A DNA stretch of 40,835 nucleotides from contig JBAZUN010000003.1 in assembly GCA_041661365.1 (NCBI GenBank), forward strand, positions 1 through 40,835, written 5' to 3'. The stretch comes from Candidatus Latescibacterota bacterium (GTDB taxonomy: Bacteria > Latescibacterota > UBA2968 > UBA8231). The notes below the pieces were generated by a model. That model searched no databases, had not been told where the DNA came from, and saw only the letters and a program-made list of their open reading frames with translations. Made by a program: the position numbers and the translations under genes. Below, piece by piece: positions 1,926-37,577 of this stretch. Each line of letters opens with the position of its first letter. The stretch's first letter is position 1.

Positions 1926-2675
1926 ATGCTGCTGGCGCACCCGACCGGTCACTATCGCTTCCTCACCGGGATCGATCCCTACTCCTGCGGGGTGATCGCC
2001 GATCCGGGGTATCAGATCGTCCGCGCCGCCTTCGCCTGCCTGCTTCCCTGGCGGCAGGGGTTCGAGCGGATCGACGAGCACCTGCGGACCACCGGCCGGG
2101 GCCGGGAGGCGGTGTGCGCCGTGGAGCTGCGTTCGCCGGCCCCCTTCACCATGTCCGGGTTCATCGCCTTCAACCGGACCTACTGCGAGCTGCTGCGCGA
2201 CTGGAACCTGTACGTGGGCGAGTACAACCCCGTGGCGAGGACCAACGTGGCCCCGGTGCACCAACCTCCCTCGGAGGTCGTGCTGCATGCCTTCTCCTAT
2301 ACGGTTCCGGCGGCCGGACCGATGCGACCGACCCTGGTCGTAGCCGGAGCCGGCGAGCTGCGCGAGGGGGTGCTCGAGGAGGAGCGGATCATCCGCCCCG
2401 GCGAGGACAGCGCCGAGGCTCTGCGCGAGAAGGCGACCTACGTGATGCAGGTGATGACCGAGCGGCTATGCGGACTGGGCGGCGACTGGCCGATGGTGAC
2501 CAGCGTCAACGTCTACACCGCTCGCCTGGAGACCTGGGTTGCCGAGGAGATCGTGCTGGCCGGGACCGGGCCGGCACGTCGCGAGGGGCTCTGCTGGCAT
2601 TGCACCCGGCCGCCGGTGCAGCGGATCGACTTTGAGATGGACCTCCGCGGGGTCGCCACCGAGCTGGTGATCTAG
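1926..2675 (+). CDS. conserved hypothetical protein, possibly CnbZ-like deaminase family
   Basis: ORF 1860..2675. The TTG at 1860 abuts AGGAGG with no spacer, so ATG 1926 is preferred; the start is uncertain. Composition is globular. N-terminal HPTGHYRFLTGIDPYSCGVIA resembles my recollection of 2-amino-5-chloromuconate deaminase-like proteins (unverified). Confidence 0.55.
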   Translation: MLLAHPTGHYRFLTGIDPYSCGVIADPGYQIVRAAFACLLPWRQGFERIDEHLRTTGRGREAVCAVELRSPAPFTMSGFIAFNRTYCELLRDWNLYVGEYNPVARTNVAPVHQPPSEVVLHAFSYTVPAAGPMRPTLVVAGAGELREGVLEEERIIRPGEDSAEALREKATYVMQVMTERLCGLGGDWPMVTSVNVYTARLETWVAEEIVLAGTGPARREGLCWHCTRPPVQRIDFEMDLRGVATELVI

Positions 2676-2842
2676 TGTCGCGTCGCAGAAATAAGTTGTG
2701 TCATCGAGCGGGCCGAGGTGCCCGGCCAGCTAGGCGCGCGAACGCCCCGTATCGACAGCAAGATACAGGAAGTGAGCGCAACGACGCTGGCCGGGATGGA
2801 TCGGCCCGCGAATGCCAAGGTATTTCTGCGACGCGACACTAG
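2672..2842 (+). repeat. structured intergenic element, copy 1 (unassigned family)
   Basis: 22-bp perfect closing helix (2672-2693 with 2821-2842). Nested helices 2709-2716/2801-2808 and 2721-2730/2786-2795. Core blocks gctaggcgcgcga, gtgagcgNaacgNcg and ggcccgNgaatg are shared with the elements at 22423, 23853(-) and 35578. Confidence 0.7.
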
Positions 2843-2866
2843 CCCCCGTCCAGCGCCACCGTCGGA

Positions 2867-3772: not shown

Positions 3773-6091
3773 ATGACACAGGCCATTCCCCAGGACTACA
3801 CCTCCGGCGGCAAGTACCGGGTCATCGGCACCCGCCCGATCCGCCACGACGGGGTGGACAAGGTCACCGGACAGGCGATCTACGGCGCCGACGTGCGGCT
3901 GCCGGGGATGCTCTACGGCAAGGTGCTGCGCAGCCCGCACGCCCACGCCCGCATCCTGAGCATCGACACCCGCCGGGCCGAGCACCTTCCCGGGGTGCGC
4001 GCCGTGGTCACCGCCGACGACCTGGTGGCCACGGTCGACCGCGTGGCCCGCCTCGGCGAGACCAGCGTCAACATCCGCGAGGTGGCCGGCAACTCCCTGG
4101 CCTCGGGCAAGGTCCTCTACAAAGGGCACGCCGTGGCCGCGGTGGCGGCGATCAGTCCCCACGTGGCCGAAGAGGCCCTGGCGCTGATCGAGGTTTCCTA
4201 CGAAGTCTTGCCGGCGGTGGTCGAGGTGCGGGCGGCCATGGCCGCCGACGCACCGTTGTTGGACGAGCGGCGCACCACCCGGGAGCTGGGACAACCCACC
4301 GACCGGCGCAGCAACGTCGCCAGCCACCACCAGCACCGGATGGGTGATCCGGAGCGCGGCTTTGCTCAGGCCGAGGTGATCGTCGAGCGCGAGTTCTCCA
4401 CGGCCACGGTGCACCAGGGGTACATCGAGCCGCACAACACCACGGTCTGGTGGAAGGCCGACGGCAGCATCACCGTCTGGGTCAGCACCCAGGGGCCCTT
4501 CGACATCCGCGGCCAGTTGGCCGACGTCCTCCAGATCCCGGTCTCCCAGATCCGGGTGATCCCCTGCGAGATCGGCGGCGGCTTCGGCGGCAAGTTCCCC
4601 GCGTACATGGAGCCGGCCGCCGCGGTCCTGTCCCACAAGACCGGCCACCCGGTCAAGATGGTGATGACCCGGTCCGAGGTCTTCCAGGCCTCGGGTCCGG
4701 CCCCGGGGTCGTTCATCCGCGTGCGCCTGGGGGCGACGAAGGACGGACGCATCGTGGCCGGGGAGGCGTACCTGGCCTACGAGGCCGGGGCCTTCCCCGG
4801 ATCGGCGGTCGGCGCCGCGGCAGCCTGCATCTTCGCGCCCTACGACCTCGAGAACGTGGTCATCGACGCCTACGACGTGGTGGTCAACAAGCCCAAGTCC
4901 TCGGCCTACCGCGCTCCCGGAGCGCCCAACGCCGCCTTTGCCGCGGAGAGCGTGGTCGACGAGCTGGCCGAGAAGCTGGGGCTCGATCCCCTGGAGCTGC
5001 GGCTGCGGAACGCCGCCCACGAGGGCACGCGCCGGGCCGACGGCGCGGTCTTCCGGGTAATCGGCTGCGTCGAGACGGTCAAGACGGCGATGGCCACCGA
5101 GCACTACCGCGCGCCGCTGACCGGCCCGCATCGGGGCCGCGGGGTGGCCTCGGGGTTCTGGTTCAACGGCGGCGGCCAGTCAGCCGCGGTGGTCACCGTC
5201 AACGCCAACGGCACGGTCAACCTCCAGGAGGGATCGGTCGACATCGGCGGCTCGCGGGCGGCCATGGCGATGATCGTCGCCGAGACCCTCGGACTGCGGG
5301 CCGAGGAGGTGATCCCCAGCATCCCCGACACCAGCTCCATCGGGTACACCGACGGCACCGGGGGAAGCCGGGTCACCTACGCCACCGGTCACGCCTGCTA
5401 TCTGGCCGCCGAGAACCTCAAGCAGGCGATGGGCCGGCGGGCCGCGCTCCAACTCGAGGTACCGGAGACCGACGTCCACTTCGCCGACGGCGCCTTCGTC
5501 TGCACCTCGGATCCCTCGCGCCGGCTCACCTTCCGCGAGGTCGCCGAGGCCCAGGGGAGCACCGGCGGTCCGGTCGCCGGCACCGGGTCGGTGAACGCCG
5601 GGGCCCCGGGGAACGCCTTTGCCACCCATATCGCCGACGTCGAGGTCGACCCGGAGACCGGCAAGGTGACGGTCCTCCGCTACACCGCGGTGCAGGACGT
5701 GGGCAAGGCGATCCACCCGGCCTACGTCGAGGGGCAGATCCAGGGAGGCGCGGCCCAGGGGATCGGCTGGGCCCTGTCCGAGGGGTACGTCTATAACCCC
5801 GACGGCAGCATGGCCAACCCGACCTTCCTCGACTACCGCATGCCCACGGCGCTCGACCTGCCGATGATCGAGCCGGTGATCGTCGAGGTGGCCAATCCCT
5901 CGAGCCCGCACGGCATCCGCGGCGTGGGCGAGGTACCGATCGTGCCGCCGCTCGCCTGCATCGCCAACGCCATCCACCACGCCGTCGGCGTGCGGCTGAC
6001 CGAGTTGCCCATGTCCCCGGACCGCGTCCTCGCGGCACTGCAGACCCGTGCTGCCGCCCCGGGGGAAAAGACCAGAGGAGAAGCCCGGTGA
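3773..6091 (+). CDS. xanthine dehydrogenase / aldehyde oxidase family molybdopterin-binding subunit
   Basis: ATG 3773 lies in frame inside ORF 2939..6091 and is preceded by AAGGAG (3757-3762). N-terminal KYRVIGTRPIRHDGVDKVTGQAIYGADV (a/b hammerhead) and the CEIGGGFGGKF loop are present. 772 aa. Confidence 0.9.
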   Translation: MTQAIPQDYTSGGKYRVIGTRPIRHDGVDKVTGQAIYGADVRLPGMLYGKVLRSPHAHARILSIDTRRAEHLPGVRAVVTADDLVATVDRVARLGETSVNIREVAGNSLASGKVLYKGHAVAAVAAISPHVAEEALALIEVSYEVLPAVVEVRAAMAADAPLLDERRTTRELGQPTDRRSNVASHHQHRMGDPERGFAQAEVIVEREFSTATVHQGYIEPHNTTVWWKADGSITVWVSTQGPFDIRGQLADVLQIPVSQIRVIPCEIGGGFGGKFPAYMEPAAAVLSHKTGHPVKMVMTRSEVFQASGPAPGSFIRVRLGATKDGRIVAGEAYLAYEAGAFPGSAVGAAAACIFAPYDLENVVIDAYDVVVNKPKSSAYRAPGAPNAAFAAESVVDELAEKLGLDPLELRLRNAAHEGTRRADGAVFRVIGCVETVKTAMATEHYRAPLTGPHRGRGVASGFWFNGGGQSAAVVTVNANGTVNLQEGSVDIGGSRAAMAMIVAETLGLRAEEVIPSIPDTSSIGYTDGTGGSRVTYATGHACYLAAENLKQAMGRRAALQLEVPETDVHFADGAFVCTSDPSRRLTFREVAEAQGSTGGPVAGTGSVNAGAPGNAFATHIADVEVDPETGKVTVLRYTAVQDVGKAIHPAYVEGQIQGGAAQGIGWALSEGYVYNPDGSMANPTFLDYRMPTALDLPMIEPVIVEVANPSSPHGIRGVGEVPIVPPLACIANAIHHAVGVRLTELPMSPDRVLAALQTRAAAPGEKTRGEAR

Positions 6092-22338: not shown

Positions 22339-22422
22339 GTAATAAATGCAGGAGAAACGAACCGCGATCTTTGGTCCGGACTATTGGGCCAGGAAATGTC
22401 GAAGGGGGTCTGGCTAGAGCCT

Positions 22423-22573
22423 GTCCGAGTATTCGCTTCGCAGGCGAGGTCGAGTCATGGTGGTCGAGGGCCAGGCGCGCGAGTGAGGCGCATTGACCAC
22501 GAAATGCGCCGAGTGAGCGGAACGCCGCCCTCGGTCACCAGGGCCGGCCGCAGCCCGAATGGGATACTCGGAC
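22423..22573 (+). repeat. structured intergenic element, copy 2 (unassigned family)
   Basis: Closing helix gtccgagtat/atactcggac. The 41-nt block 22443-22483 is 31/41 identical to 35606-35646. The 3' block ggccgcagcccgaatggg matches 35744-35761 at 17/18. Confidence 0.75.
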
Positions 22574-22605
22574 CGGATCCTACGAGCGAGGGGCAGCGTC
22601 GCCGG

Positions 22606-23822: not shown

Positions 23823-23852
23823 GGCCGACCTCCAGGGCCTTTGGTCAAGGAA

Positions 23853-23950
23853 CTGTCCGACATCCCATTCGGGCCGCGACCGGTCCTTGCGGCTGAGATC
23901 GGCGTTCCGCTTGGCCGCAGGGACAGACCTTTATGCGGGTATATCGGCAG
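23853..23950 (-). repeat. structured intergenic element, copy 3 (reverse orientation, 5'-truncated)
   Basis: The reverse complement reads ctgccgatat..aagcggaacgccg..ccggtcgcggcccgaatggg atgtcggacag. It aligns with the 3' half of copy 2 and keeps a closing helix (one G-U pair and one bulge). Confidence 0.6.
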
Positions 23951-24091
23951 GCGGGTAACGGTGCCCTGTCTGGAAAGAAGTTCCGGGTAGGGCAGGCCAT
24001 TTCCTCGAGATCCAGGCCATAGCACCCTGGCACCCGCGGTTCTGACCGGTATGGGGGGAAGGGAGCAAAGCCCGAGCCTGCGTGAGCGGGC

Positions 24092-35577: not shown

Positions 35578-35777
35578 GCAGCCCGTTGAAAAAGCCGCTT
35601 TGCCTGGCGAGGCCGAGGGATGGCGGGGCCTGGCTAGGCGCGCGAGCAACAGCGCATCGAGGGAAGATGCGCAGCGCGAGCGGCACAGGGACGTGGCCGG
35701 ATCGAGAGCGATCCGGCACACGACGCCAGGGCCCGTCAGCACCGGCCGCAGCCCTAATGGGCTTTTCAACGGGCTGC
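35578..35777 (+). repeat. structured intergenic element, copy 4 (unassigned family)
   Basis: Closing helix gcagcccgttgaaaaagcc/ggcttttcaacgggctgc. Same core blocks as copy 2. An extra 9-bp hairpin lies at 35696-35717. Confidence 0.75.
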
Positions 35778-35891: not shown

Positions 35892-36029
35892 GTGAGCAGG
35901 GAACCATCAAGGTGGACCGTCCGGGTCGTGGCCGCTTGGATCGGTTCTCCTGCCCGTCTCTCCGGAACTACCACCCGGCTAGGCCGGCGACGCCGGCCGG
36001 GTCAACCCCGTAGACAAGGAGATTGCCGC

Positions 36030-37577
36030 ATGGAACGACGCAACTTCGTCAAGAGTCTGGCCGCAGGGGCTGCACTCGTGCCCCTTCTCGCCGAGGTCGC
36101 CCAAGCCTTGTCGGACGGGCTGGAGGCCCTGCGCGCCGATCTGGCGGCAACCCCGGACGACGCGGCCTACTGGGCCAGGGTCCGGGAGGAGTTCACCGCC
36201 CTCGAAGTGGTCTACTTGAACAGCTCGACCATCGGCGCCACGCCGCGGTCGATCATCACGGCGCTGTGCGGGTACCTCGAGCGTCTGGAGAGCTATCCCC
36301 GCAGCTACGTATTCGGGGGCTTCCCCGGAGCCTCGATCGAGACGGTGCGCCAACGGGCCGAGGAGTTCCTCGGCGCGTCGGATGACGAGGTGGCCATCAC
36401 CCACAACACGACCGAGGGGATGAACTACGTCGCCACGGGGCTGAAGCTGCAGGCCGGCGACGAGGTGCTGATGACCGACCAGGAACACCCCGGCGGCACT
36501 GCCGGGTGGCAGTACCGGGCCAAGCGGGACGGCATCCGCATCGCCACCATGTCCCTGCCGACGCCGGTGGAGAGCAAGGAGCAGATCCTGCAGCTCGTCG
36601 AGGACCACCTCACGCCGAACACGCGGGTCTGTTCCTTCTGCCACATCATGACCGAGACCGGGCTGCAGATGCCCCTGGCCGAGATCGCCGCGATCACCCG
36701 TCCCCGGGGCATCTTGCTGGTCTGCGACGGCGCCCACGCCCCGGGCATGCTCCAGGTGGACGTCAAGGCCCTCGGGGTCGACACCTACGCCTCCAGCAGC
36801 CACAAGTGGATGCTGGCGCCCAAGGGCAGCGGCCTGCTCTACATCAGCAAGGAGGTGCAGGACCGGATCCAGCCGGTCGCACTCTCCGGCGGATACGGGG
36901 TGTATTCCGGCGCCTCGGGCACGCCCAATACCCCGCACGTCCTTGCCCACGGGGACACCATGGCCTTTCACAACACCATCGGCCGCGACCGCGTGGAGCG
37001 CCGCGTCCGGCAGCTCCAGGCCTACCTCCGCGCGCGGCTGACGGCGATCGGCGCGACGCCGCTGGTCCCAGACGTTCCTGAGCTGTCCTCCGGCGTCACC
37101 AGCTATGCCTTCTATTCTTTCAGGGGCCGCAACTCGGACAACCTATACCAAGAGCTCAAGAAACGGGGCATCGACGTGAAGGCGGAACCCCGGAACTCCC
37201 TGCGCATCTCGACCCACATCTTCAACAGCGAGGAGGAGATCGACCGGCTGACCGACGAACTGAAGAGCCTTCGGGGGGTCACCTCCGTCGGCGAGACCGG
37301 GAGCGCCCTGCCCAAGGCGGTCGGCCTGCAGCAGAACTACCCGAACCCGTTCAACGCTTCCACGCAGATCCGCTACGAGCTGCCGGCCGACGGCAACGTC
37401 CGCCTGGAGATCCTCGATGCCTTGGGGCAGATCGTCGACGTCCCGTTCCGCGGCTGGCAGACCGCCGGCCGGCACGAGCTGCTGTGGAGTGCCGGCCTCT
37501 TCGCCACCGGAACATACCTGTGTCGACTGGTCGCCGACGAGGAGACGCAGACGCGCAAGATGGAGCTGGTCCGGTAA
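36030..37577 (+). CDS. class V aminotransferase-fold PLP enzyme with Tat signal and T9SS C-terminal sorting domain
   Basis: ATG 36030 preceded by AAGGAG. Twin-arginine motif ERRNFVKSLAAGAA. PLP-lysine motif SSHKW. C-terminal LQQNYPNPFNASTQIRYELP...GTYLCRL is of T9SS/FlgD-Ig-like sorting type. Confidence 0.85.
   Translation: MERRNFVKSLAAGAALVPLLAEVAQALSDGLEALRADLAATPDDAAYWARVREEFTALEVVYLNSSTIGATPRSIITALCGYLERLESYPRSYVFGGFPGASIETVRQRAEEFLGASDDEVAITHNTTEGMNYVATGLKLQAGDEVLMTDQEHPGGTAGWQYRAKRDGIRIATMSLPTPVESKEQILQLVEDHLTPNTRVCSFCHIMTETGLQMPLAEIAAITRPRGILLVCDGAHAPGMLQVDVKALGVDTYASSSHKWMLAPKGSGLLYISKEVQDRIQPVALSGGYGVYSGASGTPNTPHVLAHGDTMAFHNTIGRDRVERRVRQLQAYLRARLTAIGATPLVPDVPELSSGVTSYAFYSFRGRNSDNLYQELKKRGIDVKAEPRNSLRISTHIFNSEEEIDRLTDELKSLRGVTSVGETGSALPKAVGLQQNYPNPFNASTQIRYELPADGNVRLEILDALGQIVDVPFRGWQTAGRHELLWSAGLFATGTYLCRLVADEETQTRKMELVR

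Follow-up and report, generated by a model that had tools for sequence, protein, structure and literature searches.

The element examined here occupies positions 2672-2842 of a stretch of 40,835 nucleotides (nt) from a Candidatus Latescibacterota bacterium (GenBank assembly GCA_041661365.1, contig JBAZUN010000003.1; this whole stretch is hereinafter the window), and its closest known analogues are the miniature transposable elements with inverted repeats (MITEs) that are paired with insertion sequences of the IS5 family, the Correia elements, and the enterobacterial repetitive intergenic consensus (ERIC) sequences, also known as intergenic repeat units (IRU). Ordinary MITEs conserve their termini, and their interior drifts; an example of a prokaryotic MITE with an IS5-family partner is Chunjie/ISGur4 in Geobacter. 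The Correia elements, which are found in a single genus, Neisseria, are intergenic units of ~100-160 bp with long terminal inverted repeats that duplicate TA, form a long hairpin when transcribed, contain an IHF site and promoter elements, and are substrates of RNase III. The ERIC sequences are imperfect intergenic palindromes of 100-170 bp that are often transcribed and adopt rod-like folds with conserved internal loops; they are not known to have a partner transposase or a clear target duplication, and their host range is narrower than that of the family described below. Repetitive extragenic palindromic (REP) elements are 20-40 bp long, carry a GTAG head, depend on an HUH transposase and produce no target duplication (PMC2817692); the general features of prokaryotic MITEs have been reviewed (PMC10969869).

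Measured against these systems, the element at 2672-2842 belongs, with a probability that we put at about three in four, to a family of MITEs moved in trans by IS5-family DDE transposases. Like the known IS5-paired MITEs, the members of this family are small (below ~500 bp) and non-coding, are bounded by terminal inverted repeats and short TA-containing duplications, and are dispersed in many copies with both filled and empty sites; in the Burkholderia subfamily, the termini are common to an autonomous IS5-family element, and for the two types that occur in the window (A and B, defined below), no such matching insertion sequence was found. Unlike in the known IS5-paired MITEs, the interior is not derived from an insertion sequence and is kept in nine labelled phyla while the terminal repeats vary by subfamily; there is covariation in the stems, with a preference for one strand. 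The resemblance to the Correia elements extends to size, long terminal inverted repeats, TA duplication, intergenic placement and a long hairpin, but there is no sequence similarity, and only the present family has a core that crosses phyla. The ERIC sequences (PMC2759123) are, like the present family, imperfect palindromes with a rod-like fold and conserved internal loops; they are unrelated in sequence. With REP sequences, bacterial interspersed mosaic elements (BIMEs) and REP doublets forming hairpins (REPINs), the family shares abundant extragenic palindromes and, in proteobacterial loci, mosaic or inverted-doublet arrangements; the present elements differ from these in having IS5-like termini and TA-centred direct repeats.

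The element is mobile DNA, polymorphic for presence and absence, and not a housekeeping RNA gene. Copy 1, as we denote the element at 2672-2842, lies between convergent genes for a RidA-like protein and a 4'-phosphopantetheinyl transferase (PPTase). Locus L121 contains matching RidA (98% at the amino acid level) and PPTase genes, with flanks ~95% identical on both sides, but the spacer is ~35 nt and the element is absent; the RidA-PPTase spacers of L122 and L123 (82% and 73%, respectively) are ~21-22 nt long and likewise lack it. At L126, a syntenic locus with sigma-70, ParA and sigma-54-activator genes, the places that correspond to copies 2 and 3 of the window hold no copy of the core. Near-identical copies occupy separate loci of one genome: a Gemmatimonadota metagenome-assembled genome (MAG) has three type B copies of 160 bp, each on its own contig, with 94-96% identity among them. 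The element is found in 12 places in one replicon of Burkholderia stagnalis and in 7 in B. cenocepacia. Four type A copies are found within a 2.2-kb stretch of an Actinomycetota MAG (L092, 5400-7700), and at an unrelated metagenomic locus (L129), the left 19 terminal bases of copy 1 recur exactly and the right ones at 16 of 19 positions. An earlier note on this DNA, made from the sequence alone, anticipated many further copies, which have indeed turned up in other genomes and metagenomes, and offered two identities, a structured RNA family or a mobile repeat; the empty orthologous sites and dispersed copies, together with the TA-centred repeats and IS5-type termini described next, favour the latter.

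Two further observations touch these loci. The spacer between RidA and PPTase cannot be aligned between the window (2843-2866) and L121 (1071-1105), and each of the two genes has a different stop codon in the two sequences, which may be a footprint of insertion or excision. The four copies in L092 have the same orientation and are located between small genes in a cassette-like layout.

The junctions of copy 1, atC-TA-(GTGTCGCG...CGCGACAC)-TA-Gcc, place the element proper at 2675-2839, flanked by TA; the sequence at 2672-2842 was correctly described in the earlier note, but its limits are better drawn inside these flanks. From these TA junctions, it follows that the pre-insertion site would be CTAG and that the TAG stop codon (2673-2675) survived the insertion. 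This codon, in which the flanking TA is completed by G2675, does terminate the upstream coding sequence, as had been noted, and that sequence is RidA/CnbZ-like. The convergent PPTase open reading frame (ORF) ends at 2867 and is thus close by, at 24 nt from base 2842 instead of the 25 first counted. Copy 1, with its perfect terminal repeats of 19-22 bp and a CTAG that overlaps a stop codon, is a young insertion. Flanking repeats of other members of the family are given in Table 1; the arrangement TA-G...C-TA (here and below, hyphens mark the boundaries) is common to copy 1, L041, L052, L094, L016, L124 and the insertion sequences of L125 and L025. The set of flanking repeats and the boundaries were curated by eye, without a formal statistic.

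The connection to the IS5 family emerged when the terminus of the B. stagnalis element, which has a perfect terminal repeat of 30 bp, was used as a query. This search led to a plasmid of B. thailandensis (L125), with a database E-value of 0.02 for a 22-nt match. At positions 3008-3836 of L125 there is an insertion sequence of ~830 bp, flanked as cTA-...-TAg, in which an A7G slippery site (-1 frame) connects two ORFs, that is, a frameshifted transposase; both ORF halves match the NCBIfam model NF033580, IS5 family transposase (E-values of 9e-40 and 7e-41). This insertion sequence is multi-copy, and in other plasmids, of Burkholderia, Pandoraea and Paraburkholderia, its annotation reads IS5 family transposase. 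It opens with the 14 bases GGGTCTGTTTACAT, which the B. stagnalis element has at its terminus without a mismatch (14/14), and the TA flanks are alike. A second insertion sequence of this type, tTA-GGGCCTGTCGACATAT...-TAg, is present in a Myxococcaceae locus (L025) that also holds a type A copy. Across the family, the termini GGGCCTGTTC, GGGTCTGTTT, GAGCCTGTCC and GTGCCCCGTTCC are flanked by TA, CTA, TTA or CTAA, and subfamilies other than that of Burkholderia start with related sequences (GGGCCTGTTC, GAGCCTGTCC, GTGCCCCGTTCC and CAGYCCGTTG). Termini starting with G(A/G)G and a TA-centred duplication of 2-4 bp are typical of the short, frameshifted IS5 subgroups (IS427/IS1031 in the naming of ISfinder). 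Both of these features, which we take to be defining, are found in the present family. The termini and target duplications of the family match those of IS5-family insertion sequences of the short, two-ORF, frameshifted type (NF033580), and we infer that transposases of this family also move the subfamilies represented in the window itself. The 8 bases directly outside the left ends in L124 (1442-1449) and L125 (3000-3007) are also the same (GCCTGCTA), which may reflect a target preference or chance.

Transposition of REP or REPIN type, as single-stranded DNA (ssDNA) and by a REP-associated tyrosine transposase (RAYT) of the HUH class, would be in keeping with the nested palindrome, the inverted doublets seen in proteobacteria and a strand-specific folding signal (see below), which would suit a single-stranded intermediate. 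Judging from the elements themselves, we nevertheless consider it highly improbable: HUH transposition makes no direct repeats, but TA-centred ones flank the element; the sequences read show no evident conserved 5' GTAG head; the units, at 160-300 bp, are far above REP length; and the termini match a DDE element of the IS5 family.

Under the preferred reading, a DDE transposase encoded elsewhere in the genome would bind both terminal inverted repeats (the outer stem, P1), excise or copy the element, and insert it at a TA-centred site such as CTAG, CTAA or TTAG, with duplication of 2-4 bp. Copy 1 would have entered a CTAG that overlapped the RidA stop codon, which was thereby preserved. The ~95-nt core module in the interior would aid the persistence of the element: it might act in cis in transposition, for example, by juxtaposing the ends or by binding a protein, or alternatively, it might act as RNA that limits the harm to flanking genes.

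Several observations weigh against this scheme. Neither in the window nor in a metagenome scan with the terminus of copy 1 was there an IS5-family transposase with termini that match copies 1, 2 or 4; in the window, a tblastn search with the IS5 transposase likewise gave no match. The terminus shared in Burkholderia is short, with an E-value of 0.02 for 22 nt and a local alignment score within the range of shuffled sequences; the weight of this match comes from its exact placement at both termini beside TA. Beyond the termini, the interior of the element has no similarity to the IS5-family insertion sequence and, therefore, the element is not a simple deletion derivative. Across phyla, the family reverses the norm for MITEs in that the interior is kept and the ends vary, so that a plain MITE model fails here. 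The excess of G·T pairs and the better-folding strand, described below, point to a single-stranded phase, which a double-strand DDE mechanism does not require. The flanks, moreover, do not match in about half of the copies examined (copy 4 of the window, with CAAG and CTAA, as well as L043, L114, L118, L037 and L062), and the duplication signal accordingly rests on a curated subset; an automated finder of widest-span terminal repeats was misled by chance 9-mers in GC-rich flanks. Copies with non-matching flanks are taken to be older or rearranged.

The fold that first drew attention to the element was reproduced by RNAfold: 2672-2842 forms one nested hairpin with P1 (22 bp, perfect), the inner stems P2 and P3, and an apical hairpin of 5 bp. 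The minimum free energy of the + strand is -109.4 kcal/mol, compared with -60.8 ± 4.2 kcal/mol for dinucleotide shuffles (z of -11.5; none of the 200 shuffles equal it), and both strands are highly stable, the - strand reaching -110.4 kcal/mol (z of -12.8). The rod-like fold of copy 1 stems from a long imperfect palindrome.

A very stable hairpin on both strands, placed between convergent genes, is what a bidirectional transcription terminator or insulator would look like, and the earlier note had suggested checking for such activity. As the identity of the element, this is very unlikely: there is no T-run after the stem on either strand, a scan of the three copy-bearing regions of the window gave no intrinsic terminator (nor a sigma-70-type promoter), the neighbours of the other copies are co-directional or, in one case, divergent with the copy in their promoter region, and a perfect 22-bp stem with a 120-nt interior is unlike terminator anatomy. 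A secondary effect on read-through is still conceivable.

The interior was followed into other genomes by scanning one genome per species with the pattern AGGCGCGCGA-N28-36-GAGCGNMAC. This yielded 120 loci, more than half of them chance matches, and ~45 in which all parts are in place, stem / AAGGCGCGCGAC / hairpin / GAGCGCAACGC / complementary stem. From 36 of these complete loci, a covariance model of the core was built, after chance loci had been filtered by hairpin and stem criteria, and gave 55 hits at E<1e-4, some of which had not been selected by the pattern. The module thus delineated (~95 nt; stem / AAGGCGCGCGA / hairpin / GAGCGCAAC / stem) recurs inside different terminal repeats in nine labelled phyla. 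By record title, the hosts belong to Latescibacterota, Gemmatimonadota, Planctomycetota, Acidobacteriota, Actinomycetota, Myxococcota, Desulfobacterota-type "delta" lineages, Pseudomonadota (alpha, beta and gamma) and Bacillota, the latter represented by one Clostridia MAG with 47% GC; the GC content of the window is ~69%, and the nearest named homologues of its RidA-like and ParA proteins are labelled Latescibacterota.

The core module is housed in at least four types of terminal repeat. Type A (~165 bp), with termini like GTGYCNCGTY...AAATAMGG, includes copy 1, L012, L092, L027, L058, L025 and L129, and has a conserved helix, GCACCGAG/TTCGAATGC, that corresponds to the third unpaired block of the earlier note. 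Type B (~160 bp), with termini CAGYCCGTTGAWAAAG at both ends and a CCCGRATGGG block, comprises window copies 2-4 and elements from Gemmatimonadota and Latescibacterota MAGs. In beta- and gammaproteobacteria, doublets of ~280-300 bp run from TA-GGGCCTGTTCACA... through the core module and a diverged inverted module to ...TGTGAACAGGCCC-TA. The fourth, mosaic type (~410 bp) has GGGAACCTCTGATTAAGTCC termini and is found in some Burkholderiales, Gallionella and Nitrosospira loci. The copies in the window span 136-198 bp, and their relatives 146-410 bp.

Within this collection, the type B element of a Latescibacterota chromosome (L043, OZ242358) is 87-89% identical over its full length to those of the Gemmatimonadota MAG RHO3_bin_7 (L019, L073 and L114), with a 14-nt deletion as the main difference; this likeness across phyla suggests either horizontal transfer of the element or a problem of binning or labelling. 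A Burkholderiales MAG (L084, 1-1850) contains ~410-bp elements with the core and further conserved hairpin modules between GGGAACCTCTGATTAAGTCC termini, and several adjacent element copies or fragments flank a short gene there. The strings GAGCGCAAC (core block 2) and TTAAGTCCCGC, the latter from the L084 termini, also occur at ~1090-1110 of 16S rRNA, a universally conserved part of that molecule, probably by coincidence.

The family has no match in Rfam 15, whether the whole window was searched at the gathering threshold, region 2600-2900 at E<=10, or copies in 18 other loci; for the Burkholderia copy, there were only weak, generic hairpin matches to miRNA models. The impression that the element is unlike known RNA classes thus holds for every copy. 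Searches of Rfam and of the literature with sequence strings and topics gave no description of the family, which we provisionally regard as undescribed. Retron RNA, IS200/IS605 or omega-RNA ends, bridge RNA, hammerhead and twister ribozymes, and a tRNA-like T-arm in the TTCGAATGCC block were all considered and dropped because of missing defining features, the lack of an Rfam match, or the wrong genomic context. Integron attC sites have R''/R' core sites (RYYYAAC ... GTTRRRY) and form arrays beside an integrase; on direct reading, the termini of copies 1, 2 and 4 do not fit GTTRRRY, and the window copies are dispersed among housekeeping genes.

In the core strand, P3 is followed by an AA/GCN loop, a G-C pair, a 2x2 loop (GC/AA), a 4-bp helix, tandem G·A pairs, two covarying pairs, a loop, and the variable apical hairpin. 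Compensatory change, first proposed from the four copies in the window, is borne out by the 55-sequence family alignment and not by those four copies alone. All 10 pairs of P3 show double compensatory changes, with 86.7% of the cells paired, and the covariation score of the whole structure is 0.525, compared with 0.156 for column shuffles (none of the 500 attains the observed score) and no more than 0.13 for slid registers. The apparent invariance of the inner helix GCGC/GCGC came from the search pattern, in which it was fixed; in L129, a locus found through its terminus instead of its core, the helix becomes GCCT/AGGC through two compensatory double changes, and the flanking AAGG, the tandem GA/GA and CAAC are kept, with CTCAC/GTGAG in P3 compared with CCAGC/GCTGG in copy 1.

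The two strands of the core are not equivalent. In 32 de-duplicated clusters, with the register of P3 fixed by the flanking blocks, there are 266 Watson-Crick pairs, 20 G·T, 3 A·C and 31 other mismatches; a count over the whole arms from local alignment (124 G·T, 72 A·C and 177 other mismatches) is noisy, and the P3 count is preferred. In addition, of 33 modules compared, 25 fold more stably on the core strand than on the complement, with a mean difference of -3.8 kcal/mol (Wilcoxon p of 2e-4). Symmetric mutation of a double-stranded palindrome gives equal numbers of G·T and A·C and, therefore, one strand of the core appears to have been selected to fold as a single strand, either RNA or ssDNA.

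These patterns raise the possibility, which we hold only tentatively, that the core is a functional unit in itself, a structured RNA or ssDNA motif whose internal loop has tandem G·A pairs, which is bound by a protein or processed, and which is carried on interchangeable IS5-type termini. Such a unit would complement the MITE explanation without excluding it. The residence of one ~95-nt module inside at least four types of terminal repeat, the covariation of P3, the compensated helix of L129 and the strand asymmetry are all in its favour. Against it, the core has no orientation bias: with neighbours classified by codon-position GC periodicity (no wrong calls on the known genes of the window), the upstream gene has the same orientation in 15 cases and the opposite one in 16, the downstream gene in 10 and 14, respectively, and relative to the local GC skew, the split is 21 against 29 (8-kb loci). 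Furthermore, copy 2 of the window is antisense to both of its neighbours, no sigma-70-type promoter or intrinsic terminator was found in the window copies, as stated above, the complement of copy 1 folds slightly better than the core strand, and the two blocks are invariant in part because the loci were gathered with a pattern that contained them. On balance, the core may have a function of its own (protein binding, RNA processing, or an ssDNA fold that promotes transposition), but this is doubtful; in its most specific and equally uncertain form, the proposal is that a strand-specific, single-stranded module, most plausibly a protein-binding or processed RNA, has been exchanged among IS5-type MITE chassis in at least nine phyla.

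A further alternative, that copies of a free-standing non-coding RNA gene (a riboswitch, small RNA or ribozyme) were duplicated by chance, would explain the strong fold, the conserved unpaired blocks and the covariation. We give it very little credence: the element is an insertion relative to orthologous loci, bounded by terminal inverted repeats and, outside these, by direct repeats; neither strand of copy 1 folds better than the other to any extent that matters here; the copies share no consistent genomic context or orientation; no Rfam family is detected, even at E<=10; and the decayed copy 3 is tolerated. As the primary identity of the element, the pure RNA gene envisaged in the earlier note is not supported, in particular given the lack of orientation bias relative to neighbouring genes.

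The copies in the window and the parts of copy 1 are listed in Table 1. The ordered recurrence of the unpaired blocks, originally reported for three further places, holds for copies 2 and 4; the reverse-strand copy 3 is an internally deleted remnant that is devoid of block 1 (AGGCGCGCGA) and of the apical hairpin, and retains only AGCGGAACGCC, CCCGAATGGG and the right terminal repeat. Likewise, the stems of copies 1, 2 and 4 differ in sequence and stay complementary, but in the case of P1, the difference is that between the terminal inverted repeats of different subfamilies. When run unfiltered over the whole window, the core model matches copy 1 with 70.8 bits (2709-2806), copy 2 with 60.6 bits (22450-22547) and copy 4 only in part, with 18.9 bits (35637-35686), and does not detect copy 3. 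The low score of copy 4 is due to an extra hairpin of ~31-36 nt (gccggatcg-agag-cgatccggc, 35684-35719) that interrupts block 2; a direct repeat, GGCAC, stands on either side of this hairpin. With respect to the adjacent genes, copy 1 has the sense orientation for RidA and the antisense orientation for PPTase, and copy 3 the sense orientation for both. Copy 4 occupies a divergent promoter region, its end being 23 nt upstream of the point where a GFO/IDH-family gene on the - strand has its start codon.

Table 1. Copies of the element in the window, parts of copy 1, and flanking repeats in the window and at related loci
Feature	Positions	Strand	Sequence or remark	Flanking repeat (left/right)
Copy 1, type A, complete 165-bp element	2675-2839	+	flanked by TA	TA, or CTAG
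Copy 1, terminal inverted repeats	2675-2693 and 2821-2839	+	perfect outer stem	
Copy 1, left TA of putative target-site duplication	2673-2674	.	CTAG = 2672-2675	
Copy 1, right TA of putative target-site duplication	2840-2841	.	CTAG = 2839-2842	
Copy 1, P2	2709-2716 pairs with 2801-2808	+	like architecture in L012, L092 and L129	
Copy 1, P3	2721-2730 pairs with 2786-2795	+	within conserved core module 2721-2795	
Copy 1, block 1	2731-2741	+	TAGGCGCGCGA; alignments and core covariance model	
Copy 1, apical hairpin	2749-2766	+	in core module 2721-2795	
Copy 1, block 2	2774-2782	+	GAGCGCAAC; in core module 2721-2795	
Copy 1, conserved block	2809-2816	+	CGAATGCC; 3' of second arm of P2	
Copy 2, type B relative, 163 bp	22417-22579	+	termini GAGCCTGTCCGAGTAT... 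/ ...ATACTCGGACCGGATC	CTA/CTA (22414-22416 and 22580-22582)
Copy 3, internally deleted remnant	23849-23984	-	right arm CCCGAATGGGATGTCGGACAGTTCC, part of block 2, first bases of left terminus	
Copy 4, type B, 198 bp	35579-35776	+	termini CAGCCCGTTGAAAAAGCC and GGCTTTTCAACGGGCTG	
L012				CTTAG/CTTAG
L073 and L074				CTAA/CTAA
L019				ATAG/ATAG
L041, L052, L094, L016, L124 and L117				TA/TA

Several other features came to light at these and related loci. The metagenome scan with the copy 1 terminus gave only three loci, one sibling (L129) and two with a terminus alone, and no autonomous element. The latter two, on JGI metagenome contigs of lower GC content (L127, 67-85; L128, 72-90), are exact matches of 23-28 nt to the terminus of copy 1 (TAGTGTCGCGTCGCAGAAATAAG...) that adjoin ordinary genes without a core or a second terminus and may be solo termini. 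The spacer between the ParA and sigma-54-activator genes of the Latescibacterota relative L126 contains a repeat of ~100 nt (gcagccgcatcactgaacccg...) in two copies ~175 nt apart (4822-4920 and 4996-5095), which is unrelated to the element studied here. In the window, the product of a class-V aminotransferase ORF (35892-37577) has a weak C-terminal match to Por_Secre_tail, a sorting domain of type IX secretion, with an E-value of 1.4e-4 that is under the curated cut-off.

For annotation, the consequence is that a family abundant in many poorly studied phyla, and present in Burkholderia among the Pseudomonadota, is missing from Rfam and, because its members fold well and covary, will go on being taken, in error, for a new RNA gene. 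Copies located at a stop codon, such as copy 1, or 23 nt upstream of a start codon, such as copy 4, may influence the expression of the adjacent genes. The retention of a structured interior while the ends change raises the question of how an internal fold benefits a transposon that codes for nothing, and Burkholderia provides a cultivable host in which the role of this fold could be tested. The strand-specific folding signal is compatible with a role of the core as RNA or ssDNA; if the core is indeed a functional module, the spread of the motif would depend on the action of the fold, rather than on a passive palindrome.

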